Counted from the stretch's first letter, positions 3,253 through 53,285 are shown. The stretch is DNA of 64,000 nucleotides from a virus (IMGVR_UViG_3300035188_001315), one strand, 5' to 3'. Notes: generated by a model not told the origin, from the sequence alone. Program-made: numbers and translations.

Positions 3253-3602
3253 CAATTCTAAGCTAAATCATTTTTCAACAAATTAGATATTGCTTGTACT
3301 TCAATATTTACTACACCCAATACACCTAGTGCAGCCCACCCAAAAAATACAACATTATGTTCATATAAGGTCGTTACTCTTATACCGCTTGTTAAGCTGC
3401 TTATAGTTTCCTATAAGATCGGACTATATCTTTATCCATTTCTGGATACTACCCATTTCCACTTACTTAAGTGTACTCCCTTTCGGGATAGTCTCTGAAC
3501 CTTAAACTTATTACTAAGTTTCTTGGCTGCTGATTGTCCTTTCGGATGTCCCAGCAATTAAAGTAGTTTTCATTATATTATTACTAATATAAGGAGCCTG
3601 TA

Positions 3603-4268
3603 TTATTTTGACCCATAATGTAAAGGGGCTACAAATAACTCCTCCATAAACCAGAATGTGTGTCCCCATTCATTTAATCCAACGTTTGGAAGAATCATAA
3701 ATGGACCAATTACAGATACCATGTATTGTAATGGTAAACCTTGTTGATAGGTTGGCAATCTTGTTTTAGCATATAAAAATGCAGCAACACCTGTAATAAT
3801 GTAAATTGGATAACTTAAATAAAACTCAATAACATGACTTGGTGTAAAGTCAGTATCACGGACAATCGTTTGATGCCATGTACCATCTTGTTCTGTAAAG
3901 TATGATGCACCATAATAAATCGCAATACCATACATTACCAACCAAATCCAATGTGTGAAGTGTCGTCTCAATTCCTCACGAGGAGTAATTGACATTACTT
4001 TTCGATCACGTGTCTTCCAAATATAACCCCATAATACTGAAGCAGTAATTACTTCAAGTACCATTTCAATGTAAAGGAAATTCATCCAATACGTTTCAAA
4101 CTCCGGTGCAAATGAATCTAAGCCGGCTGACCAACCATAGACTCCTTCATACCAACGAACCCAACCATAAAATACAACGTATAACGCTGCACCTGCTAAC
4201 ATAGCTTTTTTGTTTAAAAGAGAAGATTCTTTTACTTCTGCTTTTACCATTTCTACTGTTGCTGACAT
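3603..4268 (-). CDS. pmoC: ammonia/particulate methane monooxygenase subunit C family protein (PmoC/AmoC-like), C-terminally short
   Basis: Translation carries the conserved blocks WVRWYEGVYGWSAGLDSFAPEFETYWMNF, WGYIWKTRDRK, SYFTEQDGTWHQTIVRDTDFTPSHV, MILPNVGLNEWGHTFWFMEELFVAPLHYG, diagnostic of PmoC/AmoC. AGGAGA RBS 7 nt before the MSATVEMV start. Ends right after PLHYG, so the last TM helix of bacterial homologues is missing. Confidence 0.85.
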   Translation of the reverse strand: MSATVEMVKAEVKESSLLNKKAMLAGAALYVVFYGWVRWYEGVYGWSAGLDSFAPEFETYWMNFLYIEMVLEVITASVLWGYIWKTRDRKVMSITPREELRRHFTHWIWLVMYGIAIYYGASYFTEQDGTWHQTIVRDTDFTPSHVIEFYLSYPIYIITGVAAFLYAKTRLPTYQQGLPLQYMVSVIGPFMILPNVGLNEWGHTFWFMEELFVAPLHYGSK

Positions 4269-4537
4269 GTTGTTTCTCCTAATCAAGGGAAAAAATATAA
4301 ACGTAGTGTACCAACACGGCACACTTCAACTTGAGTTAAAACAGTTTATAACAAACCTTAAAACTTAGTGTTTTACTCTGTTATTATAAACTGGGAGATA
4401 TTATACAAAAAAGTTTCAAAAACAAAATATTTTTAAAAAAAAAATTTAAAAAATGTTTCTGTCTATATTTTAAAGCAAAAAAAAATGTGTTCGTTAAACG
4501 CATTTTTTTCATAAGTATATGTTATTTAAATATTATA

Positions 4538-6088: not shown

Positions 6089-6484
6089 TTATTTACCTTC
6101 AACAACCGGTTCTTTACTATCAAAAAACTGTTGTACAACGGTAATCAAATCTCTGGGACTAAATGGTTTAGTTTTAAAAAGATTTGCACCTGCTGCAAGT
6201 CCTTTTTGAATATCATATGTGTTACCAGATATTAATATTAAAGGACAAGCTGGATTAATTTCTTTAATCATACGACATAGTTCGACACCATCATATTCTC
6301 CTGACATCATAATATCAGTAAAAACTATATCTGGATCAATCTCTTGATATTTTGAAAATCCTTCTTCAGCATTTACTGCTTCAAATAGTTGTATGTTTGG
6401 TTGACGTTTGAATGTTAAGTACATTAAATCACGAATGTTTTCACAATCGTCAACTACTAACAATTTAATGGGTTTATGTTTCAT
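6089..6484 (-). CDS. single-domain response regulator (CheY-like receiver)
   Basis: LLVVDD acidic pocket, phospho-acceptor D in FTDIMM, conserved T and K (KTKPF). Start codon 2 nt after the kinase stop, i.e. translationally coupled. Confidence 0.8.
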   Translation of the reverse strand: MKHKPIKLLVVDDCENIRDLMYLTFKRQPNIQLFEAVNAEEGFSKYQEIDPDIVFTDIMMSGEYDGVELCRMIKEINPACPLILISGNTYDIQKGLAAGANLFKTKPFSPRDLITVVQQFFDSKEPVVEGK

Positions 6485-6486
6485 AA

Positions 6487-7653
6487 CTATTTCACCGGAA
6501 ATAATAACCTAAATGTCGTTCCACAATTTTCAGGGTTTGTGTTAGTATCAACTAATAGATGACCACCGGCATCGTGTACCATACCACATACCGTAGATAA
6601 ACCTAAACCTGTACCTTCACCAATAGGTTTAGTAGTATAAAATGGATCAAATATATGTTCCAGTATATCTACAGGTATACCTGTACCATTATCTTTTACT
6701 GACAACTCAATAAACTTACTAGGAACTATATGTGTTACACATGATGTACACAAAGTTGGTTCTAATAATACTATAGATTTCAATGAAAGAGTAATGGTAC
6801 CACCTGATTTCATAGAATCTCTAGCATTCACTACTAAATTAGTAATAATTTGATGTAAATCAGTTGAATCAATACGAATATCTAATCTCAAATCAGTATC
6901 AACTTCCAAATTAAATTTACTTGTTAATGCAGGTCCAATCATAGATACAACCTCACCGATAACATCGTGAGTTGCACGTATTTCAGATGGTGCATCTGGT
7001 GGACTATGTCTAGAATAAGCCAACATTTTTTTGATGAGATTTGATGCTCGTTTTGCGGCTTTTTGAATTTCTTCCGCATTATGTAATATCTCATCTTTAA
7101 TATCGCCACATTCACAATCCTCAACAACCATAGCAGTTATATCATTATAACCTACTACACAATTCAAAATATTGTTAAAATCGTGTGCAATACCTGCAGT
7201 TAATCGACTGAGACTTTCGATTTTTTGCATTTGATTTATTTGCTTATTAAGAGTTACTAATTTAACTTTGTTTTCTTCACGTTCAGAAATATCCTCAAAC
7301 TCAGCCATATAACCAAGACAATGATTATCATTATCTCTAATAGTGGTACATCGGATAAATACAATCATATCTGCAAATTTTAAAACTGAACTTAGACATT
7401 TACTCGATGATTCGAGTAAATGTCTAAGTTTTGAAGGATCTGGATAAATATCATCAACATTCTTCCCAATAAGGTTATGTATATCAAACCAGGGAAGTCT
7501 AGCTTTGATTATTGGTTCTGCACTTTTAAATATATTAATTGCACTTTTATTAACATAGACAATATTGCGATCAACATCAGTTATTATCACACCAGTAAAT
7601 AATTTGTCTAATCCTAACTTCAATTTTATCCCAGTTGATTTGGACTGTGGCAT
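6487..7653 (-). CDS. cytoplasmic PAS-domain sensor histidine kinase
   Basis: N-terminal PAS-like region. H-box AGIAHDFNNIL, N-box NLVVNARDS, G1 DNGTGIP, G2 GTGLGLS. No TM segments. Confidence 0.8.
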   Translation of the reverse strand: MPQSKSTGIKLKLGLDKLFTGVIITDVDRNIVYVNKSAINIFKSAEPIIKARLPWFDIHNLIGKNVDDIYPDPSKLRHLLESSSKCLSSVLKFADMIVFIRCTTIRDNDNHCLGYMAEFEDISEREENKVKLVTLNKQINQMQKIESLSRLTAGIAHDFNNILNCVVGYNDITAMVVEDCECGDIKDEILHNAEEIQKAAKRASNLIKKMLAYSRHSPPDAPSEIRATHDVIGEVVSMIGPALTSKFNLEVDTDLRLDIRIDSTDLHQIITNLVVNARDSMKSGGTITLSLKSIVLLEPTLCTSCVTHIVPSKFIELSVKDNGTGIPVDILEHIFDPFYTTKPIGEGTGLGLSTVCGMVHDAGGHLLVDTNTNPENCGTTFRLLFPVK

Positions 7654-9200: not shown

Positions 9201-9279
9201 ATTTGGAGCAGGACTTGGATAGATTTGAACTATCACTTTTGGAGTGGAACTCCAATGTTCTACCATTAAACTACACCTG
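9201..9279 (-). tRNA. tRNA-like element with Gly (UCC) anticodon arm, copy A, non-canonical
   Basis: D arm, anticodon arm TTGGA-GTTCCAC-TCCAA and T arm GATAG-TTCAAAT-CTATC are fine. Three extra nt lie between T stem and acceptor, with 2 acceptor mismatches. Identical copy at 10336-10414. Confidence 0.35.
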
Positions 9280-9361
9280 CATATTATACTATTTTATGAC
9301 ATCGGTGAATCAATCACTAAACGGTGATGCCATATATTAAAAACCTTACAGGTTTGTTATT

Positions 9362-9437
9362 TGGCTGGCTAGGTAGGGCTCGAACCTACGACAGAGTGAT
9401 TAACAGTCACTTGATCTACCAACTGATCTACTAGCCA
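9362..9437 (-). tRNA. tRNA-Asn (GUU), copy A
   Basis: Clean cloverleaf: acceptor TGGCTAG/CTAGCCA, anticodon arm AGTGA-CTGTTAA-TCACT, T arm GTAGG-TTCGAGC-CCTAC, encoded CCA. Identical copy at 11039-11114. Confidence 0.75.
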
Positions 9438-9627: not shown

Positions 9628-9664
9628 AAAAATCCTAACAAAATCAATTTGTTAGGATTTCTAT
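9628..9664 (-). terminator. rho-independent terminator for leftward tRNA operon
   Basis: atcctaacaaa/tttgttaggat hairpin followed by U-run on minus strand. Confidence 0.55.
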
Positions 9665-9821: not shown

Positions 9822-9837
9822 AAATATATGGAGCAGG

Positions 9838-9975
9838 TAAGTTGGATTTGTACCAACATTTTACTATCAATCTACATCTGCACCATTCTAAATTTAATTT
9901 TCTCCTAGTTACGAACCACCGACTCGGTGATTAAAATAGTCAATTGCTCTACCAAACTGAACTAATAAGAGAAAA
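9838..9975 (-). pseudogene. two degenerate tRNA-like remnants
   Basis: Segments with recognisable D-arm (AGTTCAGTTTGGTAGAGC) and T-loop-like motifs, plus a tggagcagg start resembling the Gly-like repeat. No closable acceptor or anticodon stems. Confidence 0.3.
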
Positions 9976-10006
9976 TGATCTGGAAACCCTGATCAGTAAT
10001 AATATT

Positions 10007-10291
10007 TGGCATCCTCTAGTGGATTCGAACCACTGACCTACGGCTTAGCTTACCACTATAGTTTTCACTACCACATAAGTGTTTGTGGTCTGGACTTTCT
10101 CTTTACCATATCCTCTGAATTGGACTTAGGTAGTTGCCATTAAGTCTCTACACGTTCCCATTACTGGGCTTCGCTCGGGATTGACATTTTACAGTTTTCC
10201 CCGAATTTGACAACTTACATTCATAATGTTTCCACTATGACGCTCCAATGTATTCAAAGGCCGTTGCTCTATCCAGCTGAGCTAAGAGGAC
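10007..10291 (-). tRNA. tRNA-Arg (UCU) interrupted by a group I intron in the anticodon loop
   Basis: 5 prime half GTCCTCTTAGCTCAGCTGGATAGAGCAACGGCCTT and 3 prime half CTAAGCCGTAGGTCAGTGGTTCGAATCCACTAGAGGATGCCA assemble into a canonical cloverleaf with loop CUUCUAA. The two halves are separated by 208 nt. Confidence 0.7.
10049..10256 (-). ncRNA. ORF-less group I intron (Azoarcus/cyanobacterial tRNA-intron type) between anticodon positions 34 and 35
   Basis: Intron RNA contains GUUGUCAAAUUCGGGGAAAAC (P3-P4 core) and GUGUAGAGACUUAAUGGCAACUACCUAAGUC (P7 region), closely resembling the Azoarcus pre-tRNA-Ile intron. 5 prime exon ends in U; intron ends in G. Confidence 0.65.
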
Positions 10292-10335: not shown

Positions 10336-10414
10336 GAGCAGGACTTGGATAGATTTGAACTATCACTTTTGGAGTGGAACTCCAACGTTCTACCATTAAA
10401 CTACACCTGCATTA
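10336..10414 (-). tRNA. tRNA-like element with Gly (UCC) anticodon arm, copy B
   Basis: Near-identical to 9201-9279 (one substitution). Confidence 0.35.
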
Positions 10415-10560: not shown

Positions 10561-10953
10561 ATTGTTTGGTGGACCTGGCGAGTTCTGCCCCTCGCGTCCA
10601 TAAATAACCACACTTAAAGTACTACACGTTTATTTCAATTTTATTTTTCATTTCTTAACAAAAATGAACAAAATGTTAAAAAATATATTCCGTAACTTTA
10701 GTTTGAATTCTATTTCCAGAATGTATAGAATTCTATCTTGTGTCCATGACACCCAAACGATAATCAGATTATCTCTATTCGCACAAGCACAAATAGTTGA
10801 GTGGGTAGATAGGGTGTTTAAGCCGCTACTGCTACCTGGTAGTAAGAGTCATTTGCAATTACTTTAAATTTGGATCGTTTAAAGAGAACTCCACCTCTAC
10901 GTGCACTTCAAAGCTTCATCATCTATGTCGATTCTGATTCAAGCCCTAAATTT

Positions 10954-11038: not shown

Positions 11039-11114
11039 TGGCTGGCTAGGTAGGGCTCGAACCTACGACAGAGTGATTAACAGTCACTTGATCTACCAAC
11101 TGATCTACTAGCCA
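11039..11114 (-). tRNA. tRNA-Asn (GUU), copy B
   Basis: Identical to 9362-9437 including about 12 bp of each flank. Confidence 0.75.
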
Positions 11115-11164: not shown

Positions 11165-11450
11165 TTAAACACCTAAAAATAACATTATACAATAAAAAAT
11201 TTCATTTATCAAGATTTTTTAAAAAATATTTTTTTCATCACTTCTTAAAAATAACATTATACAATAAAAAATTTCATTTATCAAGATTTTTTAAAAAATA
11301 TTTTTTTCATCACTTCTTAAAAATAACATTATACAATAAAAAATTTCATTTATCAAGATTTTTTAAAAAAATATTTTTTTCATCAATTCTTAAAAATAAC
11401 ATTATACAATAAAAAATTGCATTTATCAAGATTTTTTAAAAAAAAGGGGA
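11165..11450 (-). repeat. four tandem ~72-bp repeats, each carrying a consensus sigma70 promoter directed leftward into the tRNA cluster
   Basis: Each unit on the minus strand reads cTTGATAaatgaaattttttattgTATAATg (TTGATA-17-TATAAT) with an A/T-rich UP-like tract. Copies start at about 11181, 11253, 11325, 11398. Confidence 0.6.
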
Positions 11451-11650: not shown

Positions 11651-11887
11651 TTAAAATGAATTTGGTTTAGCAACTGATCTCGTGATTGCCATTAATCCTT
11701 TTTGTAAATCAGTTTTTCCTACAGTTAACCACCAAGTATCAGTAGTTTCAATGGATTCCAATTTTTCAATCAGATTACCCAATTTTTCGCCAATATCCTT
11801 AATTTCATTTATTGCAGAAACTTCTTCTTCAGTTAAGTTTCTGTATCCTTTGATTTTTTGTTTTTCTTCTGTCATCATAATCTCCAA
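11651..11887 (-). CDS. hypothetical protein (78 aa)
   Basis: ORF, acidic, upstream of 295-aa gene on same strand. Confidence 0.4.
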   Translation of the reverse strand: MEIMMTEEKQKIKGYRNLTEEEVSAINEIKDIGEKLGNLIEKLESIETTDTWWLTVGKTDLQKGLMAITRSVAKPNSF

Positions 11888-12858: not shown

Positions 12859-13995
12859 TTATTCAAACAATTCATAAGAAATAGTATCAAATCCTTCACT
12901 GTACATTGGTAAAGTAAAAGTGGTCATCATATCAAGCATAACCTGTCTGGAAATTCTTTTACCCGTTTCCATTTCTCGATTTTCTGAATGCTCCATAAGT
13001 TTATCAAATCCTTTCAAAAATAAAATACAATGTTTTTTATAATTTGAAGGAAATGTGTTTATCCATGATCTACGTCTTTTTTTGCTCATCATAGTCATAT
13101 CAACCAACACAGACTTGTTATGTTGTTTTGCATCCAGTGTCAAAGATTCAATGAGATTAGAAACCTCATTTTTTTCTATCTCTTTGTTTTCATTCAAAAA
13201 ATTGAAAGCTTCATTATAACCAGAAAGATTATATTTTACAACCACTTGTTCAACCAAATCATCTCGACTAATAACTACCATACCAGGATGTGATAACAAA
13301 ATTTTTTCCCGTTCAGTAGATTTACCACTACAAGGTGGTCCACATAAAATAATCAGTTGTGGATTATCATCAATTTGCATAATTGGAGTATTATCAACAA
13401 GTTGATCAACAACATTTTTTACATTATCAAACGCTACATTTGAAATTGCAGAAGCAGTACCTTCTTTCCAAAATCTACCAGCTGCATCAGCTTTTACTTG
13501 ATATAAGAGATGATGTAATAAGGTTTTTTCATTTTTAAATGTTTCAAGCAACTCATATTTTACACTACCATCCGATTTAATGAAATTAAACAAACTACCA
13601 TGTAAGGCAATAATTTTGAAAATCAAAACTTTATCATCCACCGATAAAGAGCTTTTGTTCATCACATCTAATGATAAGAAAGCACTGATTCCTTCATGAC
13701 CGATGAAATTAACTCGTTGTTTTTCCTCATTAACTTTTCTAGCTAATGGTTTTCCAATATCATGCAACAATGTAGACCATCGGACATAACCATTTTCAGG
13801 TACAAAATTTTGTGCTTGTAAACACACCATCATAGTATGAGTGAATATAGATCCCTCAATATGATACGGATTTATTGTGGTTTCATCATAATGATGAGTC
13901 GATGCACACATTGTTTTTACCAAATGTGGAAATTCTACCTGAAACCATGAAACTAAATCACTGGTACTCGTTGTCAAATCTATTGTATCTGGCAT
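12859..13995 (-). CDS. HD phosphohydrolase domain fused to P-loop kinase domain (polynucleotide kinase/phosphatase-like, RNA repair candidate)
   Basis: N-terminal H ... HD motif (HIEGSIFTHT ... LLHDIGKP). C-terminal Walker A GPPCSGKST. Confidence 0.6.
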   Translation of the reverse strand: MPDTIDLTTSTSDLVSWFQVEFPHLVKTMCASTHHYDETTINPYHIEGSIFTHTMMVCLQAQNFVPENGYVRWSTLLHDIGKPLARKVNEEKQRVNFIGHEGISAFLSLDVMNKSSLSVDDKVLIFKIIALHGSLFNFIKSDGSVKYELLETFKNEKTLLHHLLYQVKADAAGRFWKEGTASAISNVAFDNVKNVVDQLVDNTPIMQIDDNPQLIILCGPPCSGKSTEREKILLSHPGMVVISRDDLVEQVVVKYNLSGYNEAFNFLNENKEIEKNEVSNLIESLTLDAKQHNKSVLVDMTMMSKKRRRSWINTFPSNYKKHCILFLKGFDKLMEHSENREMETGKRISRQVMLDMMTTFTLPMYSEGFDTISYELFE

Positions 13996-23275: not shown

Positions 23276-24079
23276 ATGTTGGAAAAAGCAAAACAGATTA
23301 TTAAAGATGCTGATGTAGTCATTTTGATGACCGGTGCTGGAATGTCAGCTGAAAGTGGGTTAGATACTTTTCAGAATACAACCAACAGTAGAAAAAAAGT
23401 TAAAAACCAAAAAATCACCTATGCAAACTTAACTACTCAGGAAGCATTCAAAGAGAACAATGAGTTAGCATGGACTTTCCATGGTCAAAGATTTAACTCC
23501 TATAAAACTACTAAACCCCATAAGGGTTATAAAATGTTACTCGATCTTGTAAAAGAAAAAGAGGATCATTTTGTGGTAACATCAAATATTGATGGTGCTC
23601 ATCATAAAGTGGGTTTTGATAATGTGTATGAAATTCATGGTCGATTACATAAATTTCAATGTATTGAGTGTGATGATGTTTGGTCTGCACCAGAAGATAC
23701 TTTTTTTGATGTTGATGTAAAATCTTACACTTTAAAGAATGAAGTTCCAAAATGTGTTTGTGGTGGAATTACTCGCCCCAATGTAATGATGTTTGGTTAT
23801 GATACAGGTTTTAACAAAACTGAAACGAATCAGCAATCTAAGGCGTTTAATGAATTTATGGTTAAATATGATAAAGGTGACCATAAAATCGCAATCATTG
23901 AAATTGGTGCAGGTGAATCAGTTCCTACTATTAGAACAATGAGTGAATTTATACATGAAAGAGTTCCAGGGGCAACATTAATCAGAATCAATCCAACAGA
24001 TACATTTGTTCCTGATGTGGACGCTATTTCGATAAAAATGACCGCCTTGGAAGCAATTGAAAGTTTAATTAATTTTTGA
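23276..24079 (+). CDS. SIR2-family NAD-dependent deacylase/ADP-ribosyltransferase (sirtuin)
   Basis: GAGMSAESGL nucleotide-binding motif, TSNIDGAHH, HG, four-Cys zinc ribbon (CIEC ... CVCG), GAGES motif. Confidence 0.7.
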   Translation: MLEKAKQIIKDADVVILMTGAGMSAESGLDTFQNTTNSRKKVKNQKITYANLTTQEAFKENNELAWTFHGQRFNSYKTTKPHKGYKMLLDLVKEKEDHFVVTSNIDGAHHKVGFDNVYEIHGRLHKFQCIECDDVWSAPEDTFFDVDVKSYTLKNEVPKCVCGGITRPNVMMFGYDTGFNKTETNQQSKAFNEFMVKYDKGDHKIAIIEIGAGESVPTIRTMSEFIHERVPGATLIRINPTDTFVPDVDAISIKMTALEAIESLINF

Positions 24080-40899: not shown

Positions 40900-40935
40900 A
40901 ATAAATGGTAAATTTAATTTTTTTTGGAGGTAATT

Positions 40936-41604
40936 ATGAAAAAATATCCTAGAACATATCATTTACCTTTTAGTCCAGAGGTTCATAGTGATGATAAAAT
41001 TTGTGATTTGGGTGATTTAAATCGTATAATTGATGAAAAAATTGAAGTAGTTATCTTAGTTAAGCTAGATGGTGGTAATGCATGTTTATCAAAAGATGGA
41101 GTTTTTGCAAGAACACACGCACAAGAAACTTCCTGTCCAACGTTTGATTTTATAAAAAATGTGCATTATTATCAAAATTTAAATGACTTAACTGAACAAA
41201 ATTTAAAAATTTTTGGTGAAAATATGTTCGCAGTGCACTCAATTGTGTACGAAAATCTCAAAGATTATTTTTATGTTTTCAATATTTTGGACGAAAATTC
41301 AAATAATTTTTTAAGTCATGATGAAGTTGATGAATGGGCTACAGCCCACAAAATGCAAGTGGTTCCAAAAATTTACGAAGGGGTGATTCCTTCTTTGACA
41401 TGGTTAGAAAAATATTTGGCACTGATGTTGTCAAAAAATGACCTTGGTGGTCCGCGAGAAGGATTTGTTATTCGCACAAAAAAAGCATTTTCAAGTGATG
41501 ATTTTTCAAAAAATGTGTTCAAATATGTTAGAAAAGATCACGTACAAGACAAAAATAATCACTGGTCACGTAACTGGGTTCAGCAACCAAAATTAGTAAA
41601 GTGA
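40936..41604 (+). CDS. RNA ligase-like nucleotidyltransferase
   Basis: N-terminal KKYPRTYHLPFSPE signature and KLDGGN (motif I KxDG). GGAGG RBS. Confidence 0.55.
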   Translation: MKKYPRTYHLPFSPEVHSDDKICDLGDLNRIIDEKIEVVILVKLDGGNACLSKDGVFARTHAQETSCPTFDFIKNVHYYQNLNDLTEQNLKIFGENMFAVHSIVYENLKDYFYVFNILDENSNNFLSHDEVDEWATAHKMQVVPKIYEGVIPSLTWLEKYLALMLSKNDLGGPREGFVIRTKKAFSSDDFSKNVFKYVRKDHVQDKNNHWSRNWVQQPKLVK

Positions 41605-41812
41605 AATTCTTGGAGGAAAAATGCAAGCATATGGGTTAAAAAGGTTCCTAAGTGTAAGAAAAAAATCTACAAAACGACATTGGAAACATGTTGCTAGAGC
41701 CTCTGTAAAAAAAATAATTTGTGAAAATTTTTAATTTTTTTTGGAAAAAACTCTTGACAATTGAGAATATTTTTGCTATAATAACCCATCAATCAAATAA
41801 AGGAAATTGAAA

Positions 41813-42901
41813 ATGAAACGAGTAATCAAATATTCAAGTATCGAACAGTTCAACCAAGTTATTCGTACTGTAAAAGAACGTGCAGCATTTATGTATTTTG
41901 ATGAAGAAACACAAAAAGCTGTGTTTGATCCTGCACCTAACTATCCAGTAGTATTAGCTAAAGTTACTGAAAAAATTCACGGTACTAATGGTTCGATTTG
42001 TTTTTCTAATCCAGATGGTTTTTGGGTTCAATCTAGAACTAATATTATTACCCCAGAATCCGATAATGCGTCATGTGCGTCGTACGCCATGAAAAATAAA
42101 GATGAATGGTTATCGATCGTAAACTCTTTAGCGACCGAGTATAATATCGACCTAGATAATAACATTATCGTGATGTATTTTGAATGGTGTGGTGATGGCA
42201 TTCAGAAAAAAACTGCGTTAACTGGTACGTCAGATAAAATGGCAATTATTTTTAGTCATTTTAAAGTGGAACCAATTGATGACGTCGATGAAGATGATGT
42301 GGGATCAGTGCAGTCGAATTGGTTTGAAACAAAAGTAGGTGATAAATGGGTTTCTTCACCTGAAGCTAACATTTTCAATATCAACGATTTCCCAACTTAT
42401 GAATTCACAATCGATTTTAATAAACCATTAATGGTTCAAAATGAGATGATCTCGTTGGTTAAAGAAGTAATTGAACCTGCTTCACCAGTTGGCAAGAAAT
42501 TCGGTTTTGATGCAAACATTGGTGAAGGAATCGTAGTTACATTTATTTTTAAAGACAGATTATATAAATTCAAGGTAAAAGGTGAGGCTCACACAACTTC
42601 TAAAGTAAAAACGTTGAATAGAGTTGATGATGAAAAATTGCAAAAAATTCAGGATATTGCTCAGAAAGTTTCACCGGTCTGGAGACTTGAACAAATGTTT
42701 GATTTGGCAATTGATGCCTTAAATGGTGGTAAACCCGATATGACCAAAATGGGTGATTTCATTAGACTGATTTCTAATGATATTATCAAGGAAGAAATTG
42801 ATATTATCATTGATGCAGGTTTAGAACACAAAACCATTATGCCTGTTGTTTCTACAATTGCCAGACAGTTCTTTAAAGAAAAATGTCTAGAATCTGAATG
42901 A
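41813..42901 (+). CDS. Rnl2-family RNA ligase-like protein
   Basis: EKIHGTN matches T4 Rnl2 motif I (KIHGTN). Promoter at about 41752; terminator at 42912-42941. Confidence 0.55.
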   Translation: MKRVIKYSSIEQFNQVIRTVKERAAFMYFDEETQKAVFDPAPNYPVVLAKVTEKIHGTNGSICFSNPDGFWVQSRTNIITPESDNASCASYAMKNKDEWLSIVNSLATEYNIDLDNNIIVMYFEWCGDGIQKKTALTGTSDKMAIIFSHFKVEPIDDVDEDDVGSVQSNWFETKVGDKWVSSPEANIFNINDFPTYEFTIDFNKPLMVQNEMISLVKEVIEPASPVGKKFGFDANIGEGIVVTFIFKDRLYKFKVKGEAHTTSKVKTLNRVDDEKLQKIQDIAQKVSPVWRLEQMFDLAIDALNGGKPDMTKMGDFIRLISNDIIKEEIDIIIDAGLEHKTIMPVVSTIARQFFKEKCLESE

Positions 42902-45712: not shown

Positions 45713-45788
45713 AAAAATAAAAATAAGTGTTGACAACCATGTTGAGCTATGATATAATAACCTATCAATTTAATAAAGGGGTTCCAAA

Positions 45789-46025
45789 ATGAAAAGCAAT
45801 TGGTTTGAAACATTGGTAGCAGCACTTGATTCAGAAGGTTTAAATGATAAATGGCCTTTGGGTTTAAACATTTCTTATGGTGAAACAGTTCGATTTGTCA
45901 CGGATGATTTTTATTTGATTTCTGTTTATCGCAGTGACACTGGTCGCTATGAAAGACCAGTTTGGTATTCAACTATTACCGCCGCGGCAAGAAGAAAAAT
46001 GGAAGACCAACTACAAGCAGTTTAA
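45789..46025 (+). CDS. hypothetical protein (78 aa)
   Basis: ORF after promoter TTGACA-17-TATAAT at about 45732. Confidence 0.4.
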   Translation: MKSNWFETLVAALDSEGLNDKWPLGLNISYGETVRFVTDDFYLISVYRSDTGRYERPVWYSTITAAARRKMEDQLQAV

Positions 46026-46075
46026 CCTTACATTCTCACCAATTATACTAAATCTAATATCAAATGGAGAACAAA

Positions 46076-46252
46076 ATGGTCGTTCAATATGTCGCAATGA
46101 TTGAATTTAGCACTAGACAACAAAACGTATTAGTCACTGTAAAACGATATGGTTTGGACATTGATCAAGTTAAAGAACATGTTGAAAATGGTTATCCAGG
46201 TGGAAAAGTTTTACAACTTATCCAATTGCAGGGTGAAATAGAACTGTTCTAA
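46076..46252 (+). CDS. hypothetical protein
   Basis: ORF with GGAG RBS. Confidence 0.35.
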   Translation: MVVQYVAMIEFSTRQQNVLVTVKRYGLDIDQVKEHVENGYPGGKVLQLIQLQGEIELF

Positions 46253-46324
46253 CGGCCTACTTTCACTTGACATCCTGCATTAGATTTGATACAATAAACC
46301 GCACTTATTGATAAAGGGTACAAA

Positions 46325-46486
46325 ATGAATTATTTCACCACTCGTTATGCAGCAATGAAAGCATTCCCTAACAGTATCATCAGAAAAATTTTGAACCACC
46401 ACGTAAACGCGAATGTCGGTGATTATGTGGTTTTCAATGATTATTCAACCTATGAAGATTGGAAACAATGTGGTCATGTGAGATAA
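46325..46486 (+). CDS. hypothetical protein (53 aa)
   Basis: Short ORF, not in supplied track. Confidence 0.3.
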   Translation: MNYFTTRYAAMKAFPNSIIRKILNHHVNANVGDYVVFNDYSTYEDWKQCGHVR

Positions 46487-46904
46487 ATTAAACTCAATTA
46501 CATCAACCACAACTAAAGGAAAGCAAAATGAATTTGTTAGATGCAATCGAAGCAATAGAAAAAGAAAAAAGAAATGCAGTATGTAATAGTACCAGGGTAT
46601 GGCAGAGTGTTTGTAACTGTATTTGCTAAAAATCTCGACATTATGGGCGTTATTTGTTATAATATAGTTGTAGTATAAATTTAATCAATCTCTATAGGTA
46701 ATCAAATAAACGAATTAAAAACCAATGTTTTCCCATTAAGTTATTGCGCCTCAACAGTAGCAAACGCAGTTATCGACAGCACAATTATTGCTGTAATTTT
46801 GGTTGCTATTGACTTTATGAAAAAAATTGAATACTGATATTCAAATCAGTTTATCATATTTACGGTTTCAATCATCAATTCAACTCAATAAGAGAGTCAA
46901 TATC

Positions 46905-47144
46905 ATGACTATCACCAGAACCGAAGCGGAACAAATCTTAACACCATTATTTCAAGCAATTAAAAGCAAAGCAGAAGTTGGTGTACCTGACGAAGACGAA
47001 GACGAGCGTCAATTGGCTGAGTTCAGAAGTTTATACGAGTTACAGTATATGCAAGCACATATGGCTAGTTTACTAATGATGCTCGACAACTATCAACTCG
47101 AGTGCGAACAGCAAAGAATAACTCAAATCATTGCCGGAATTTAA
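46905..47144 (+). CDS. hypothetical acidic protein
   Basis: ORF from MTITRTE; flanked by 16-bp direct repeats caaatcagtttatc. Confidence 0.4.
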   Translation: MTITRTEAEQILTPLFQAIKSKAEVGVPDEDEDERQLAEFRSLYELQYMQAHMASLLMMLDNYQLECEQQRITQIIAGI

Positions 47145-47373
47145 TTAAGAATAATACAACTCATTGGTGGACATGGATGTCCAAATCAGTTTATCTTGTT
47201 TGTTGGAATTTGTCAATAGGACATTAATAGTGTGAAAACCAAAGGAAATTGATGCTGGGTCACTATCCGAAATTTCTTAAACATCACCACAAAAACAGTT
47301 TAAAAAATCCTTGACATTTAGAACCCCACCTGTTATAATATCTCATCAATTAAATAATCAGTCGGAGATGAAA

Positions 47374-47619
47374 ATGAATAAAAAAATCCAAAACATTATG
47401 AAGGAATGCTACATTCCTGTAATTGATCGGGATGGTGATGGTGAGTACGATATGGAAAAATTTGCTAAATTACTTATCCTTCACTGTGCTCAGGCGGCTG
47501 AAATGGCATCACAAACAGATATGGATTCTACAGAAATCTACATCATAGAACAAATGGGATTGGGTACAGAAAATGGAGCTGTTAATTGGTATTATGATAA
47601 CAAACATTTAGTCAAGTAA
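47374..47619 (+). CDS. hypothetical protein
   Basis: ORF with GGAG RBS after promoter at about 47312. Confidence 0.4.
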   Translation: MNKKIQNIMKECYIPVIDRDGDGEYDMEKFAKLLILHCAQAAEMASQTDMDSTEIYIIEQMGLGTENGAVNWYYDNKHLVK

Positions 47620-47650
47620 TTCATAATTAATTGAAACTGGAAAAAACATT

Positions 47651-47953
47651 ATGCAAGCATACTTAGAACAATTGGTTAAAGTAAATGTACTAAAATTCAA
47701 CCAAGAAAATAACACATATGAAACCAGTAATGGGTTCAAAATCACTTTAGCTGATCATGGTTGTGAATGGAATATAGATTGTTTTTATATTAACAAGACA
47801 TCAAATAAAGTAATGGCAGTTACCGATGAATGGGATTATGATGAATGTAATGACCTCGAAAAAGAATTTTCTAACCCCGATTATTTAACCATTGAAAAAG
47901 TTGTTGAAGTAACGCTCGAACAGTTGCTTGATGAAGCTACTAACGGACAATAA
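47651..47953 (+). CDS. hypothetical acidic protein (100 aa)
   Basis: ORF. Confidence 0.45.
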   Translation: MQAYLEQLVKVNVLKFNQENNTYETSNGFKITLADHGCEWNIDCFYINKTSNKVMAVTDEWDYDECNDLEKEFSNPDYLTIEKVVEVTLEQLLDEATNGQ

Positions 47954-48018
47954 AAAAGATTGGTATTTGGAAGACGTGAAAACAGTAGTTGACCTAAACA
48001 CCGAAGAGGACAAATAGT

Positions 48019-48252
48019 ATGCCACTTAACATTCACAAAGAACACTTTCAAGGTTTGGTTAACAAGAATAAAGATCTTAGACAAACATTACAGGCTGCAG
48101 CCAAAGCTAAGATAAATGGTGATTGGTGTATTATTGAAGCAGTACCATTTGATGAAGAAATGGTCTATTGCTACAATGAAGAAACTCACGTTCAATACGC
48201 AATTCGATTTAGAGATATTGACTTTGGTAATCTCAAAACAATTTTGAAATAA
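48019..48252 (+). CDS. small protein, paralogue of 53503-53745
   Basis: Shares IIEAVPFDE-M-YCY-E ... QY-I-F block. Confidence 0.45.
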   Translation: MPLNIHKEHFQGLVNKNKDLRQTLQAAAKAKINGDWCIIEAVPFDEEMVYCYNEETHVQYAIRFRDIDFGNLKTILK

Positions 48253-48308
48253 GGATATGTACGACAGCAACAACTACTCAGGTACGTGAACTACTGCGTA
48301 AACATTAT

Positions 48309-48647
48309 GTGTTTCCGAAAACAGCTGAACTCTACACAAACAAACTCCAGAATTCAATTGGTTTAGTAACAGGTTTATTTGTGGCTACATTGTTTGACAA
48401 TGTGGTTAACGATGTTCTAGAACAAGTTGAGAGAGAAATTATCAACTCTTGTGGTATTGGTGAATCCTCAACAGCGTTTCATATTACAGCAAGAATTGTT
48501 CCGTATGAGTATAAACAAGAGTTGATAAAATTAGTTGCTGATGCGGTATCCGGTGAATTGATTAAATTAGGCTACATTGTTTCGATAGAAAAAGAATACT
48601 CAGAATACACGATTTACACACTTGAAATTGATTGGCATGAAGAATGA
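48309..48647 (+). CDS. hypothetical protein (112 aa)
   Basis: ORF. Confidence 0.45.
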   Translation: MFPKTAELYTNKLQNSIGLVTGLFVATLFDNVVNDVLEQVEREIINSCGIGESSTAFHITARIVPYEYKQELIKLVADAVSGELIKLGYIVSIEKEYSEYTIYTLEIDWHEE

Positions 48648-48679
48648 TTTAAAAACCATTTACAACCACGGAGTGAGTT

Positions 48680-48997
48680 ATGACACACGAATTAGACGTT
48701 ATTGCAAAAATTGATGGATCTACATTAGTGTTAAAAGGCCAACTGTTTGGCAAAGTTGAATACGACTTAACTGAATGGGTAGATAGCGACGACATGTCAG
48801 AACTGACGTGTGATGTTGTAGTAGACGGCGATCCACGCTATCCAACATTAGTATTGTCAACACGAGTTGGGTTTAGTTTAAGTCCACGTACAGGCAAGTT
48901 AGACCGTTGCTGTATCTGCTGTGCCTATAGTTCACGCGACTGTGTTTGCGGTGCATGGGATAACGTAGATGATTACTACAATGACGACGAGTATTAA
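48680..48997 (+). CDS. hypothetical Cys-rich protein
   Basis: C-terminal CCICCAYSSRDCVCG cluster. Confidence 0.4.
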   Translation: MTHELDVIAKIDGSTLVLKGQLFGKVEYDLTEWVDSDDMSELTCDVVVDGDPRYPTLVLSTRVGFSLSPRTGKLDRCCICCAYSSRDCVCGAWDNVDDYYNDDEY

Positions 48998-49034
48998 ACG
49001 TCTTTACAATCCAATAACACACGCAGTGAGAAAA

Positions 49035-49253
49035 ATGGCTAAAATTAACTTAGATGTAAACTTGTCAACAGAACAATTAATCGTTGCGTTAAAAGACGGA
49101 ATCGAACAATTAGAATTATACGACCACTGTACGATAGAATTAGGTGGGGACGTAGTAATTCAATTAGCATCACCCAGAGCAAAAAGGTTTAGTTTACACG
49201 CGGTAGATTGTGTTAAATATTCTTTGGCAACTGATGTAAATAGTCCTTCATAA
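49035..49253 (+). CDS. hypothetical protein
   Basis: ORF with GAGAAAAATGG RBS. Confidence 0.35.
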   Translation: MAKINLDVNLSTEQLIVALKDGIEQLELYDHCTIELGGDVVIQLASPRAKRFSLHAVDCVKYSLATDVNSPS

Positions 49254-49380
49254 TCTAATAACACACGGTGATGAAAATGCAAACTTTTTGAGTGTGTATT
49301 AAAAAATTGTTAAAAAAGTGCTTGACAAACTTGCCAAAGTAAAGTATAATAATTCATACTTAATTAAACGGAGAAAAAAA

Positions 49381-49587
49381 ATGATAGACGCAACTGGTAA
49401 AGAATTACAAATTGGTGATAAGGTTGTAACTAATCAGAATGATATTCGATTAGTTGTTGGTATTGTTGAAAGTTTCACTGAAGGTTTTACTGCACAGAAA
49501 GTCAAAATTAGATTAACATCCATATCAGGTGAGTATAGCGATTATACCTGTTTAAAATTCCCTGATCAATGTGCAAAAGTAGATTAA
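49381..49587 (+). CDS. hypothetical protein (68 aa)
   Basis: First gene carrying the conserved promoter/leader cassette (aaaaagtgcTTGACA ... TATAAT ... catacttaat ... cGGAGA ... ATG). Confidence 0.45.
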   Translation: MIDATGKELQIGDKVVTNQNDIRLVVGIVESFTEGFTAQKVKIRLTSISGEYSDYTCLKFPDQCAKVD

Positions 49588-49632
49588 AAAAGTGCTTGCT
49601 TTGTTCAAGCGGATAAGGTATAATGAATCATA

Positions 49633-49792
49633 ATTAAATTAAACGCTTTCAGGACGGCTTTGCTGGTGACCGAATCCAGCTTAACGATAGTTTGGCGAGT
49701 AGGGTGGTTCCTATGGTCTGGACTAATCGGGATACCATACTGCTGACCACAGTTACTGGCGAAAACCCAGTGCCGTCCTGAAAGCGTTTCTA
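49633..49792 (+). ncRNA. GC-rich structured leader RNA closed by a 15-bp perfect stem
   Basis: cgctttcaggacggc at 49636-49650 pairs with gccgtcctgaaagcg at 49775-49789. The ~120 nt between are about 50 percent GC with internal hairpins (GCUGG ... CCAGC, UAUGGU ... ACCAUA). Transcribed from the TATAAT at about 49617. Confidence 0.45.
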
Positions 49793-49808
49793 CAATAGCG
49801 GAGGGAAA

Positions 49809-49964
49809 ATGAATAATGAATTGCGACAAGATGTACTTAGATTAAAAGACGAGTTGTCTAAACGAGCATTTGATGAAAATCAAGAAGTCAAAAATAGCGA
49901 TTTGGCTGAGGTGGTTTGGAAATTAAATAGTTGCCTTGGCCAAGGCTATCCTAGAAAAAAATAA
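49809..49964 (+). CDS. hypothetical protein (51 aa)
   Basis: Short ORF with GGAGGGAAA RBS immediately after the structured leader. Confidence 0.35.
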   Translation: MNNELRQDVLRLKDELSKRAFDENQEVKNSDLAEVVWKLNSCLGQGYPRKK

Positions 49965-49977
49965 TAGCGGCCGGGAA

Positions 49978-50190
49978 ATGAATATAAAAAATAAATTTAT
50001 CGAGAATACATTTTTGTTTATTGTGATACATTTGTATTGTTTAATTGCTATGCCTTGGCATATCTATCAAATAAAACAGCGAGATAAACAAAACCAAAAA
50101 TCACAAATTACAAAAGAAATGATGGATAAAAAAATTCAAGATTTAAATAAATTTTACGGTAAAAAGTGCTTGACAAACTCGACAAAGTAA
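49978..50190 (+). CDS. small membrane protein
   Basis: TM helix; 3 prime end runs into next promoter. Confidence 0.3.
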   Translation: MNIKNKFIENTFLFIVIHLYCLIAMPWHIYQIKQRDKQNQKSQITKEMMDKKIQDLNKFYGKKCLTNSTK

Positions 50191-50224
50191 AGTATAATGA
50201 ATCATAATTAAAGAGGAGAGGAAA

Positions 50225-50482
50225 ATGGCTAGAGAAACCACTCAACAATATATCGATAGATATTGGAGAAAAGTGTTTAATAAATCTACAACTAAAGATA
50301 GATTAATTGAAATGGGATTAAAAATTGATCAACATGAGTTCAACCTACAAAGACTTAACAGTCGTGTTAAGTCACTGGTAACTGTTTTAGATGATGTAGG
50401 TAAATTACTCGAAGAACAAATGTCTTTGTTAAATAAAGCCGAGACTCATATAGATAATGCAATAAAAATTTTACAGGAATGA
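50225..50482 (+). CDS. hypothetical coiled-coil protein (85 aa)
   Basis: ORF after cassette promoter at about 50170, RBS GAGGAGAGG. Confidence 0.45.
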   Translation: MARETTQQYIDRYWRKVFNKSTTKDRLIEMGLKIDQHEFNLQRLNSRVKSLVTVLDDVGKLLEEQMSLLNKAETHIDNAIKILQE

Positions 50483-50596
50483 TGGTTTTATCAGTGGTAA
50501 TGTGGATGATGAATTTTGGTGCGGTCATGAATCTGGAGAGATTCAATTGGTGAGTGATGTGCTAAGTGAACGTGGTATTACCTGATGGGAGGAATA

Positions 50597-50827
50597 ATGT
50601 CCGAAACAGCGTTTCTAATATGTTGGATGATTGTAGGTTTAGTAATTGTAGACTTAATATTTCAGTATCTAGATAATGTGAATGACCTAATTAAAAAACG
50701 ATGGTTGAGAATCACTATAAAAAGTATTGGATTAGTAGCCTGGCCATTTTATCTTATGCTAATAGGTGTAGGTGTGGCAATTACGTTCATCTTAGAAAGT
50801 GATATTTTTAAAAGATTCTTTGAATAA
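50597..50827 (+). CDS. small membrane protein
   Basis: Two TM helices; GGGAGG RBS. Confidence 0.45.
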   Translation: MSETAFLICWMIVGLVIVDLIFQYLDNVNDLIKKRWLRITIKSIGLVAWPFYLMLIGVGVAITFILESDIFKRFFE

Positions 50828-50901
50828 ACTTTTAAAAACTCTTGTCATTCAATGTTGGTTGTAATATAATAATTCTTATTTAATAACATCGGAGATAAAA
50901 A

Positions 50902-51036
50902 ATGAAAGATTTTCAAACAGAAATTCATTTGATGTTCACTGTTGGTGGATGCACAATGGCACAGATTGCCGCCTCACAAGGTTTAACCCTAGATGAAGTG
51001 GAAAACATTATTAAATTCATGTCATCATTGGGTTAA
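50902..51036 (+). CDS. hypothetical protein (44 aa)
   Basis: Short ORF after cassette-type promoter at about 50838 with cGGAGAtaaaaaATG leader. Confidence 0.3.
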   Translation: MKDFQTEIHLMFTVGGCTMAQIAASQGLTLDEVENIIKFMSSLG

Positions 51037-51038
51037 GT

Positions 51039-51182
51039 ATGAATTTCACCCAGGCAGAAATAGATCTAATTAAATCGGCTATACAATATACTATGGAGCA
51101 TGGGTATGTATGGCGAGATGAAGAAGAAGAACGAGAATACCAAAATTTTAAAAAACTGTTAGATAAATTGAACACCAATTAA
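51039..51182 (+). CDS. hypothetical protein (47 aa), paralogue of 53286-53438
   Basis: Both share a conserved ML(E/M)xGY aromatic core and a C-terminal YQxxxxLLD block. Confidence 0.3.
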   Translation: MNFTQAEIDLIKSAIQYTMEHGYVWRDEEEEREYQNFKKLLDKLNTN

Positions 51183-51201
51183 ATAGTGTGGGGAAATTAA
51201 A

Positions 51202-51408
51202 ATGGGCATTAAAGTTAAACAAGCACCTAACATTCCAGCTATCAAACATTGTTCAGAATGTGGTTCAGAGGCTCATTTAGTAGACTGGTATTTTCGTGGT
51301 ATGTGGGCGGTAATGTGTGATTACTGTCATAACAGTAATTCAGAATGTATTAGTAAGCATCGGGCAGTGTCTCGATGGAATAGAAAACAAGAAATGGAAA
51401 TGACTTAA
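51202..51408 (+). CDS. zinc-ribbon protein, Lar-like (possible restriction alleviation)
   Basis: IKHCSECGSEAHLVD ... AVMCDYCH: CxxC ... CxxC/H arrangement as in Lar-family small proteins. Confidence 0.35.
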   Translation: MGIKVKQAPNIPAIKHCSECGSEAHLVDWYFRGMWAVMCDYCHNSNSECISKHRAVSRWNRKQEMEMT

Positions 51409-51477
51409 TATTCTTTAAATCCGGTTTAATGATTCGTACCTAATAAATAATATTGATTTTAAAATAGGTGAGGAAAT

Positions 51478-51729
51478 ATGAAAACATTTAAACAACTTAA
51501 AGAAGACTTCGAAATGATTGAACTGCAGGAATCTGGAGATATTACCGATGAGATTAAAGATGGTAAAGATCGTCGGGCAGCAAAAGGATTGTTGAACATG
51601 CATAACGATGAACTTAAAAAAAGTAGAATGGCAAAGAGCCCTACTAAAAAATCTCACCATGCAGATATGGCCGATCAGCATTTACAAGGGGTACATGATA
51701 TTCTACGAAAGCACAACCTGATTGATTAA
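51478..51729 (+). CDS. hypothetical protein (83 aa)
   Basis: ORF with GGTGAGGAAAT RBS; terminator at 51733-51760. Confidence 0.45.
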   Translation: MKTFKQLKEDFEMIELQESGDITDEIKDGKDRRAAKGLLNMHNDELKKSRMAKSPTKKSHHADMADQHLQGVHDILRKHNLID

Positions 51730-51844
51730 TTTAAAAGGGGTATTAAATATCCCTTTTTTTATGTCTTTTTTTTTAAAAAACTCTTGACATTAGTTGCCCG
51801 GTAAGGTATAATGATTCATACTTAATGAATTGGAGATAAAAAAA

Positions 51845-51931
51845 ATGAATGAAGCAGCATTGGAAAGAATGTTTGAATATGTGGTAGCTGGTACGGCGGT
51901 ATTCATTGTGGTAACAATACTCGGTATGTAA
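51845..51931 (+). CDS. 28-aa transmembrane peptide (family member 1)
   Basis: MNEAALERMFEYVVAGTAVFIVVTILGM directly after a cassette promoter/leader; paralogue at 57166. Confidence 0.35.
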   Translation: MNEAALERMFEYVVAGTAVFIVVTILGM

Positions 51932-51986
51932 AAGTTTCAATCAAAAATAAATCGGCACACTATCTTAATAAATTGGAGAAGCAAAA

Positions 51987-52244: not shown

Positions 52245-52266
52245 CAGTCCTCTATTGGTAAACAAA

Positions 52267-52458: not shown

Positions 52459-52492
52459 AAAGCCCAATCAAACTTATTCTGGAGATAGAAAA

Positions 52493-52708: not shown

Positions 52709-52742
52709 GCCCAACATCTTTATTTTTAAAAGAGGAAATTAT

Positions 52743-53057: not shown

Positions 53058-53081
53058 TTGTACGACAGAGCAGGGGGTGAA

Positions 53082-53270: not shown

Positions 53271-53285
53271 AAGTTGGGTGTTGGA

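Follow-up and report, generated by a model that had tools for sequence, protein, structure and literature searches.

The 64,000-nt stretch of DNA analysed here (hereafter the window) comes from the virus IMGVR_UViG_3300035188_001315 and carries, on its minus strand, an arginine transfer RNA (tRNA) gene that is split in its anticodon loop by a predicted group I intron. The gene is read from 10291 down to 10007, and a window coordinate equals 10292 minus the position in the pre-tRNA (Table 1). Exon 1 (GUCCUCUUAGCUCAGCUGGAUAGAGCAACGGCCUU) ends with GAGCAACGGCCUU, its last base being U34, which provides the U at position -1 of the 5' splice site. The intron begins with UGAAUACAUUGGAGCG (UGAAUAC) and finishes with GUGGUAAG (GGUAAG), and exon 2 (CUAAGCCGUAGGUCAGUGGUUCGAAUCCACUAGAGGAUGCCA) opens with CUAAGCCGU; the 3' boundary thus reads GGUAAG/CUAAGCC, with G as the last intron base.

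Table 1. Features of the split tRNA-Arg(UCU) gene and its surroundings in window coordinates, followed by loci in other viral contigs. ORF, open reading frame; tmRNA, transfer-messenger RNA.
Feature	Coordinates	Strand	Description
Exon 1	10291-10257	minus	35 nt; acceptor 5' strand, D arm, anticodon-stem 5' strand, C32 U33 U34
Group I intron	10256-10049	minus	208 nt, no ORF, IC3-like; terminal (omega) G at 10049
P1	10243-10259	minus	C32 U33 U34 and intron UGA (10259-10254) with guide UUGGAG (10248-10243)
P2	10221-10240	minus	8-bp hairpin, GAAA tetraloop
P3, 5' strand	10209-10215	minus	AGUUGUC, pairs with GGCAACU (10138-10132); from the Rfam alignment
P4-P5-P6 domain	10153-10205	minus	P4 UUCGGGG/UCCCGAG, short P5, P6 CG/CG, P6a with GUAA loop
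P7 5' strand to P3 3' strand	10132-10146	minus	P7 GACUU (10146-10142), short joiner, P3 GGCAACU (10138-10132)
P8 hairpin	10105-10131	minus	CCUAAG...UAUGG motif, candidate 11-nt GAAA-tetraloop receptor
P7, 3' strand	10093-10097	minus	AAGUC, pseudoknot with 10146-10142
P9 three-way junction	10052-10089	minus	P9 ACCAC/GUGGU, P9a CAC-UUAU-GUG, P9b UAGU-GAAA-ACUA
Exon 2	10048-10007	minus	C35 U36 A37 A38, anticodon-stem 3' strand, variable loop, T arm, acceptor 3' strand; discriminator G (10010), encoded CCA (10009-10007)
Four tandem sigma-70 promoters (predicted)	11184-11429	minus	near-consensus TTGATA-17-TATAAT, from consensus matches
72-nt tandem repeat	11174-11443	minus	3.7 copies
tRNA-Asn(GUU), two genes	11039-11114; 9362-9437		
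tmRNA	10567-10946	minus	full length
Rfam-only tRNAs, two genes	10340-10410; 9210-9280	minus	near-identical
185-nt stretch	9822-10006	minus	tRNA-like pieces
Terminator-like hairpin (predicted)	9628-9662	minus	with T run; first downstream of the split gene, after tRNA-Pro and tRNA-Thr
AmoC/PmoC-family ORF	3603-4322	minus	
Second group I intron (predicted)	3400-3620	minus	
RNA-repair-like, Acb2/Tad1, SIR2 or histidine kinase/response regulator genes	12859-13995; 11651-11887; 6089-7653	minus	
RNA-repair-like, Acb2/Tad1, SIR2 or histidine kinase/response regulator genes	40924-41604; 41807-42901; 23276-24079	plus	
ORF-poor region	45713-55169		about 9.5 kb
Split tRNAs, contig L204	3529-5050		three split tRNAs
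Split tRNA, contig L135	14240-14519		anticodon UCA
Split tRNA, contig L202	2500-2794		anticodon CAU
Split tRNA, contig L003	1253-1613 (approx.)		
abiF motif, contig L052	959-995	minus	
abiF motif, contig L053	11857-11893	minus	

When the two exons are joined, ARAGORN reports a tRNA-Arg(tct) of 77 nt with a normal cloverleaf and an encoded CCA, and the split therefore falls between positions U34 and C35, the sole junction that restores the loop CUUCUAA. The insertion lies within the 7-nt anticodon loop and the exons pair with each other in the anticodon stem; the joined tRNA also features G18 G19, the T-loop UUCGAAU, U33 and A37. Annotated tRNA-Arg genes of Enterobacter, Kosakonia and Morganella phages match exon 1 with 95-100% identity. 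The initial annotation, made from the sequence, had described a tRNA-Arg(UCU) gene split in the anticodon loop by a 208-nt insert without an ORF, placed between positions 34 and 35 as in cyanobacterial tRNA-Leu(UAA), with U as the final base of exon 1 and G as that of the intron. Exons, intron and joined tRNA all agree with that description: the insert is exactly 208 nt long and overlapped by no ORF longer than 45 amino acids, the terminal bases are as given, the position follows from the ARAGORN call on the joined exons, and the two strings quoted there, GUUGUCAAAUUCGGGGAAAAC and GUGUAGAGACUUAAUGGCAACUACCUAAGUC, are both present.

The Rfam model RF00028 (Intron_gpI) matches the insert with 75.6 bits (gathering score 50; E = 2.2e-17 for the whole window), the match spanning 10266-10072 and model positions 1-253 of 253. 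No ORF for an intron-encoded endonuclease was found, the longest ORFs overlapping the intron being 21-45 amino acids, and the precomputed Pfam matches include no endonuclease family among the genes called around the tRNA cluster in two further assemblies of this region (L126 and L361). The secondary structure was drawn by hand on the Rfam alignment. In P1, a U34·G wobble marks the 5' splice site, and the pairs C32-G, U33-A and U34·G with GGAG are invariant in all 15 viral sequences aligned below. The P5abc extension is absent; as read from the sequence, GAAA loops cap P2 and P9b, and the CCUAAG...UAUGG motif of P8 is what we take to be the GAAA-tetraloop receptor established for IC3 introns. 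After the P9 domain follows AAG with the terminal G. By analogy with G129/C176 of the Azoarcus intron (PMC13168695), the G-C pair of P7 is the predicted guanosine-binding site. The minimum free energy fold of the 282-nt precursor (z = -3.16) recovers P2, P3, P4, P6a, P9 and the tRNA stems unaided.

Homologues were sought among IMG/VR loci fetched by two exon/intron DNA patterns and screened by blastn and by an nhmmer profile of the alignment; the matches listed for the first, loose pattern (GAGCANCNNCCTT...GGAGC) and for the later, gapped one were mostly due to chance. At least about 35 homologue loci were recognized among the 240 IMG/VR matches listed, with 17 distinct introns among the full-length matches, and the junctions CCUU/intron and G/CUAAG (the slash marking the splice site) recur in every full-length homologue whose junctions could be extracted. 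The homologues lie in dense tRNA arrays, with 17 tRNAs in contig L101 and a tmRNA plus tRNAs in L078; the IMG/VR contigs are predictions, and a few homologues are near contig ends. Among the 120 GTDB matches listed there was no true homologue, a result that does not imply absence from bacteria, since thousands of chance matches are to be expected. Megablast of the tRNA region against 50,697 phage records returned short tRNA-Arg exon matches only, indicating that no close relative has been deposited. In two viral contigs (L052 and L053) the abiF RNA motif (RF03085, 51-54 bits versus a gathering score of 37) stands directly upstream of the split tRNA-Arg(UCU); it is not at the corresponding place in the window.

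Fifteen distinct viral sequences, all split at 34/35, were aligned (alignment A2, mean column identity 65%). The proposed structure pairs 96.9% of cells in A2, a share that falls to 34-44% on sliding the 3' partners by 1-3 columns; the structure was drawn from the window sequence and is thereby favoured over the slid versions in percentage paired, a bias of which the compensatory counts are free. Compensatory changes on both sides are seen in 46 of 74 pairs, and none of 500 shuffles reached the observed values. All seven counted pairs of P2 are compensatory (97% of cells paired), as are 5/7 in P3, 3/3 in P6a and 4/4 in P9b; the tRNA acceptor and T stems covary heavily, and the anticodon stem is 95% paired with compensatory changes in three of its five pairs. 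The helices of the core, P3-P4-P6 and P7-P3'-P8, are 90-100% paired with compensatory changes, and P7 is paired in every cell of the 15 sequences with its G-C pair invariant. A 7-sequence version of the alignment, in which P9a was counted, agrees with this result. The initial annotation had read the insert as an ORF-less IC3-like group I intron of the Azoarcus/cyanobacterial type, and had named as checks a covariance-model hit and a fold of P3-P9 with the conserved P7 G-C pair; the RF00028 match exceeds its gathering score, the P3-P9 fold is supported by covariation, and the core of that reading is borne out. We consider it very probable that the locus encodes a functional phage tRNA-Arg(UCU) and that the insert between U34 and C35 is a small group I ribozyme without an ORF, of the IC3 kind known from bacterial and plastid tRNA genes.

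Several points weigh against this conclusion. P5 in the window is ACUGU...AUGU versus CCUUU...AUGG in most homologues, which makes the second tetraloop-receptor contact uncertain. The P10 pairs (C-G, U·U, A-U) make a weak helix, and no conserved P10 pairing was found among the homologues, in which this pairing is variable. The acceptor stem opens with a G1·U72 wobble, which is probably tolerated since it is shared by 5 of the 15 homologues. The mechanism would be ordinary IC3-type self-splicing, with catalysis deduced from homology, and the benefit of the extra tRNA is deduced from codon usage alone. The atypical P5, the weak P10 and the G1·U72 wobble could also be taken as marks of a decayed relic that has lost splicing, leaving a tRNA pseudogene. 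This is very unlikely, since the core helices are all intact and even carry a compensatory change private to the window (the second P6 pair is G-C here versus C-G in 12 of the 15 sequences, a double change that preserves the pair), the Rfam score is far over the threshold, the exons are canonical, the sequence is unchanged across samples, and the structure is under visible selection over 15 lineages.

ARAGORN in default mode does not call the split gene. Its intron mode forces a canonical placement and yields a tRNA-Gln(ttg) with a 196-nt intron at position 39, a call that was rejected because the group I boundaries yield a clean tRNA-Arg. Together with the two RNA ligases and the HD/P-loop kinase encoded in the window, such a call might suggest that the insert is removed by proteins in the archaeal or eukaryotic style, that is by an endonuclease with the phage RNA ligase and kinase. 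However, the forced call has the wrong isotype and disregards the U at -1 and the terminal G; the insert lies at 34/35 rather than at the canonical 37/38 and has a complete, covarying group I core; general searches, none of them aimed at either, turned up no splicing endonuclease or bulge-helix-bulge; and a ligase plus kinase is the classic phage tRNA-repair set. Protein-catalysed removal is therefore extremely unlikely in our view.

The subgroup was assigned by comparison with the bacterial tRNA introns, and their labels, in Table S5 of a 2026 survey (PMC13011429). The core (intron positions 47-176) is 72% identical over 137 nt to an IC3-labelled Acidobacteriota tRNA-Leu(UAA) intron and 69% identical to an IC3-labelled Bacteroidota tRNA-fMet intron, whereas an IB2-labelled control gave alignments of 8-11 nt only and an IA1-labelled control alignments of up to 40 nt with a best E of 0.001. 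By its similarity to these labelled introns, the intron is of IC3 type. It shares with bacterial IC3 tRNA introns the signature CAAAUUCGG...GUGUAGAGACU...AGUCCAGACCACAAAC, the GAAA loops on P2 and in the P9 domain and the CCUAAG/UAUGG motif in P8, and with the cyanobacterial and plastid tRNA-Leu(UAA) intron the position 34/35. Unlike the latter and other IC3 tRNA introns, it sits in a tRNA-Arg(UCU) gene of a viral genome and has a P5 of only a few pairs. The initial annotation had likened two strings of the insert to the P3-P4 and P7 cores of the Azoarcus pre-tRNA-Ile intron; this likeness is presumed, the test being the indirect one against the IC3-labelled bacterial introns above.

The insertion site is not new, being already catalogued in bacteria. 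The same survey lists group I introns, mostly IC3, at position 34/35 of tRNA-Arg(TCT) genes in Bacillota, Bacteroidota and Campylobacterota, with sizes of 213-639 nt and in some cases with PD-(D/E)XK endonuclease genes (PMC13011429). The window intron resembles them in the tRNA, the 34/35 site, the U at -1, the terminal G and the P1 guide type (...GGAGC), and its positions 145-208 are 77% identical to the Bacillota example. Descent from a common 34/35 lineage did not show in alignable cores: in the two bacterial examples compared, from Bacillota and Bacteroidota, the 3' third aligns and the P3-P6 core does not, and P3-P6 aligns better with the Leu and fMet introns than with the bacterial Arg(UCU) introns (the comparison leaving out the Campylobacterota sequence). 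Unlike the bacterial introns, it is only 208 nt long, free of ORFs and carried by a phage, and at the sequence level it does not look like a simple copy of those compared.

The window is part of a 227,833-bp metagenomic contig (ENA ERZ28008831), identified by exact-protein look-ups, in which the split gene is more than 35 kb from either end. The source is a large freshwater phage of about 228 kb with an AmoC/PmoC-family gene (Pfam PF04896, E = 3e-112), and the window also encodes a member of the Acb2/Tad1 hairpin family. Its GC content is 31.4%, and large freshwater phages with pmoC or amoC have genomes of 155-527 kb and 32-44% GC (PMC7674155; preprint 10.64898/2026.06.18.733297); a term search of these two papers found no mention of introns. 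PHROG matches in the window include RIIB, RNA ligase, a polynucleotide kinase/HD protein and a replication initiator, and the best matches among phage proteins come from Campylobacter phages, at about 30% identity. The window sequence recurs in JGI 3300059473, 3300034166 and 3300035665 and in run SRR11069770; with the contig above, at least five samples contain it. L126 and L361, which are independent assemblies, are 99.97-100% identical to it, split gene included, and the split gene is thus not an assembly artefact.

That the gene is bacterial, whether from a host chromosome, a prophage border or a mis-binned or chimeric assembly, would fit the introns catalogued at this site in bacteria (PMC13011429), the frequent use of tRNA genes as prophage attachment sites and the fact that no capsid or terminase hallmark gene was identified in the 64-kb window. 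We nevertheless judge this extremely unlikely. The gene lies in an array of 10 Rfam tRNAs and a tmRNA well inside the contig, whose other genes are phage-like or unknown, including the AmoC/PmoC-family gene known from large freshwater phages (PMC7674155); no typical housekeeping gene is found among the approximately 50 called genes with precomputed Pfam matches in L126 and L361. The GC content is 31%, homologues sit in dense tRNA arrays of IMG/VR contigs, and the bacterial Arg(UCU) introns compared have a different catalytic core. Three independent assemblies are identical across the region, which argues against a phage/bacterial chimera.

On the minus strand the array is composed of four promoters followed by tRNA-Asn, tRNA-Met, tmRNA, tRNA-His, an Rfam-only tRNA and the split tRNA-Arg; beyond these come 185 nt, tRNA-Pro, tRNA-Thr and the terminator-like hairpin. 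The promoters are consensus matches that probably drive the tRNA/tmRNA operon including the split gene. ARAGORN calls no second tRNA-Arg(UCU) in the window or in the roughly 9.8 kb that precede it, and AGA is the commonest arginine codon in window ORFs of at least 100 amino acids (131 of 317, 41%).

We propose the following splicing pathway, in which both transcription of the operon and use of the tRNA are read from the gene arrangement and codon usage. The split gene would be transcribed together with tRNA-Asn, tRNA-Met, tmRNA, tRNA-His, the further tRNA, tRNA-Pro and tRNA-Thr, and the intron RNA would fold into P1-P9, with the GAAA loops of P2 and P9b probably docking in helical receptors, namely CCUAAG/UAUGG in P8 and a site in P5. 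C32-U33-U34 would pair with the guide GGAG, the U34·G wobble marking the 5' splice site, and a free guanosine bound at the P7 G-C pair would attack after U34. The terminal G would then occupy the place of the guanosine, and the 3'-OH of U34 would attack the 3' splice site before C35. The anticodon stem formed by both exons, rather than a conserved P10, may keep the exons together; exon pairing in this stem matters for the Anabaena intron (Zaug et al. 1993, as cited in PMC3984707). The products would be a normal tRNA-Arg(UCU) that supplements AGA decoding and a free 208-nt intron. The initial annotation had gone further in stating that translation of AGA/AGG codons by the phage would depend on splicing; this can hold for the phage-encoded supply and is too strong overall, since the host presumably has its own tRNA-Arg. 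As the intron has no endonuclease gene, it is probably inherited along with the tRNA gene, with occasional transfer by recombination or reverse splicing being possible.

The phage setting is new in the literature searched, not in the sequence data. A 2014 review stated that all phage introns observed to date were in protein-coding genes, despite the many tRNA genes of phages (PMC3984707), and about half of viral group I introns belong to subgroup IA2 (PMC11835236). The window intron resembles those of T4 td/nrdB/nrdD, SPO1, Twort, Bastillevirinae and Jug in being a phage-carried group I intron; unlike these, which interrupt ORFs and in many cases contain or adjoin homing endonuclease genes, it is IC3-like, ORF-less and placed in a tRNA anticodon loop. 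A precedent is found in the available text of the Lak megaphage preprint, which calls tRNA introns unprecedented in phages, assigns them no class and guesses that they may be common in large phages (10.1101/356790). Those "enigmatic" introns likewise reside in phage-encoded tRNA genes of very large phages; they interrupt tRNA-Phe, Gly, Thr and Tyr genes, were checked against Rfam, and had their excision points taken from eukaryotic tRNAscan settings, whereas a group I class and splice sites are defined here. No paper on group I introns in phage tRNA genes was found in the literature searched, which took in few subscription journals, and a prior description is possible.

Further tRNAs of other phages, split by homologous group I introns, were recognized by in-silico splicing at the boundaries set by U at -1 and the terminal G, after which ARAGORN gave clean calls. 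A split tRNA-Leu(UAA) is present in the 735-kb uncultured phage LR756501 and, unannotated, in the cultured Agrobacterium phage Atu_ph07, where a coding sequence (AUZ94936.1, "hypothetical protein") has been placed on part of the gene; introns go unmentioned in the Atu_ph07 paper. Microcoleus phage My-WqHQDG has a split tRNA-Arg(CCU), annotated there as a 286-nt tRNA-Arg, and a split tRNA(CAU) occurs in two contigs, including L202 (split at 33/34). One array, in L204, has three split tRNAs: Arg-UCU at 34/35, Leu-UAA at 34/35 and Lys-UUU at 35/36. In L135, an 89-nt tRNA with anticodon UCA, labelled SeC by ARAGORN, is split at 34/35 and may be a UGA suppressor. The claim of the initial annotation that self-splicing introns are very unusual in phage tRNA genes thus matches the literature (PMC3984707; 10.1101/356790) and fails in the data, given the number of homologue loci and the split Leu, Lys, Met/Ile, Arg(CCU) and UCA tRNAs.

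At the gathering score Rfam reports nothing for L001-L004 and misses L101 and L078, whereas the profile of the window family found L001, L002, L003, L101 and L078 at E values of 1e-16 to 1e-76, and in-silico splicing likewise marks the missed loci as clear homologues. Rfam alone under-detects this family of introns, and standard pipelines will under-count it. The ARAGORN default, the Rfam gathering score and the Atu_ph07 annotation share this blind spot; because split tRNAs are missed, phage tRNA counts and inferences on codon usage and suppressor tRNAs are incomplete. The mechanism itself is ordinary, and the value of the locus is that it exposes an under-described, poorly annotated population of phage tRNA introns and corrects the textbook-level statement that phage introns occur in protein genes only (PMC3984707). 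This small, naturally varied ribozyme family offers material on the spread of endonuclease-less introns and on a possible gating of phage tRNA supply by splicing.

A wider reading is that phage tRNA arrays are a large overlooked reservoir and vehicle of ORF-less IC3 tRNA introns, which move between isoacceptors (Arg-UCU, Leu-UAA, Lys-UUU, CAU and UCA, at positions from 33/34 to 36/37) and pass to bacteria through recombination during infection. We offer this tentatively, as possible though rather doubtful; if true, it would explain the sporadic distribution of endonuclease-less tRNA introns among distant bacteria. In a bolder version, phages would retain the introns for an advantage that a split anticodon loop gives in timing or anti-defence: with group I chemistry kept, the split would time or gate the phage tRNA supply, or shield the precursor or the gene from host weapons, such as anticodon nucleases, that act on intact anticodon loops. 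The split gene is kept across many divergent phage tRNA arrays, several isoacceptors (the five just named) are similarly split, with up to three per array, and the RNA-repair-like set of the window (two RNA ligases and the HD/P-loop kinase) suggests pressure on tRNAs. Such a role is unlikely all the same. That splicing needs a U at -1 and a short pairing with the guide is a simpler explanation of the bias towards U-rich anticodon loops; bacteria and plastids keep ORF-less tRNA introns that are not known to benefit them; and the tRNA, once mature, would be no better protected than others.

Several other features of the window and its array were noted. The predicted promoters coincide with the 72-nt tandem repeat, which adjoins the operon upstream and has a near-consensus sigma-70 promoter in each unit; alignment of the window with the otherwise identical contig L126 breaks exactly at these repeats, which suggests that the copy number of the unit varies between populations. 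The tmRNA gene (Rfam, 124 bits, E = 4e-48) lies between tRNA-Met and tRNA-His, and in viral contig L078 a tmRNA likewise adjoins a tRNA array and an intron-split tRNA-Arg. Inspection by eye suggests that in the two Rfam-only tRNA genes (about 50 bits each, missed by ARAGORN) three additional bases separate the T stem from the acceptor 3' strand; tRNA-Asn(GUU) is present twice. The 185-nt stretch behind the split gene has a D-arm-like UAGUUCAGUUUGGUAGAGCA and a 3' end ...GGUACAAAUCCAACUUACCUGCUCCA; no gene is called there by ARAGORN or Rfam, the sole match being YrlA (E = 0.45, far below threshold). Decayed tRNAs, a tRNA of odd form or a further split gene could account for the stretch.

Besides the RNA-repair-like set, in which HD and P-loop kinase domains are joined in one protein, the window encodes an Acb2/Tad1-hairpin protein (anti-CBASS family), a SIR2-family protein and a histidine kinase/response regulator pair. 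Such gene content is unusual and suggests that the phage is in conflict with host defences directed at tRNA or nucleotides. A search of the IMG/VR loci gave no confirmed relative of the HD/kinase protein, and a 623-amino-acid protein had no tblastn match. The ORF-poor region, where neither strand has an ORF of at least 130 amino acids, may be occupied by numerous small genes or by non-coding RNA.

A second group I intron (Rfam, 86.4 bits) is predicted at the AmoC/PmoC-family gene, starting 18 nt ahead of the stop codon of the ORF. The ORF covers profile positions 7-216 of 245 of PF04896 only, and the downstream frame encodes ...VVFFGWAALGVLGV..., resembling the absent C-terminus. From this truncated profile cover and the C-terminus-like downstream frame, the methane/ammonia monooxygenase subunit C gene of the phage appears to be split by a predicted self-splicing intron.

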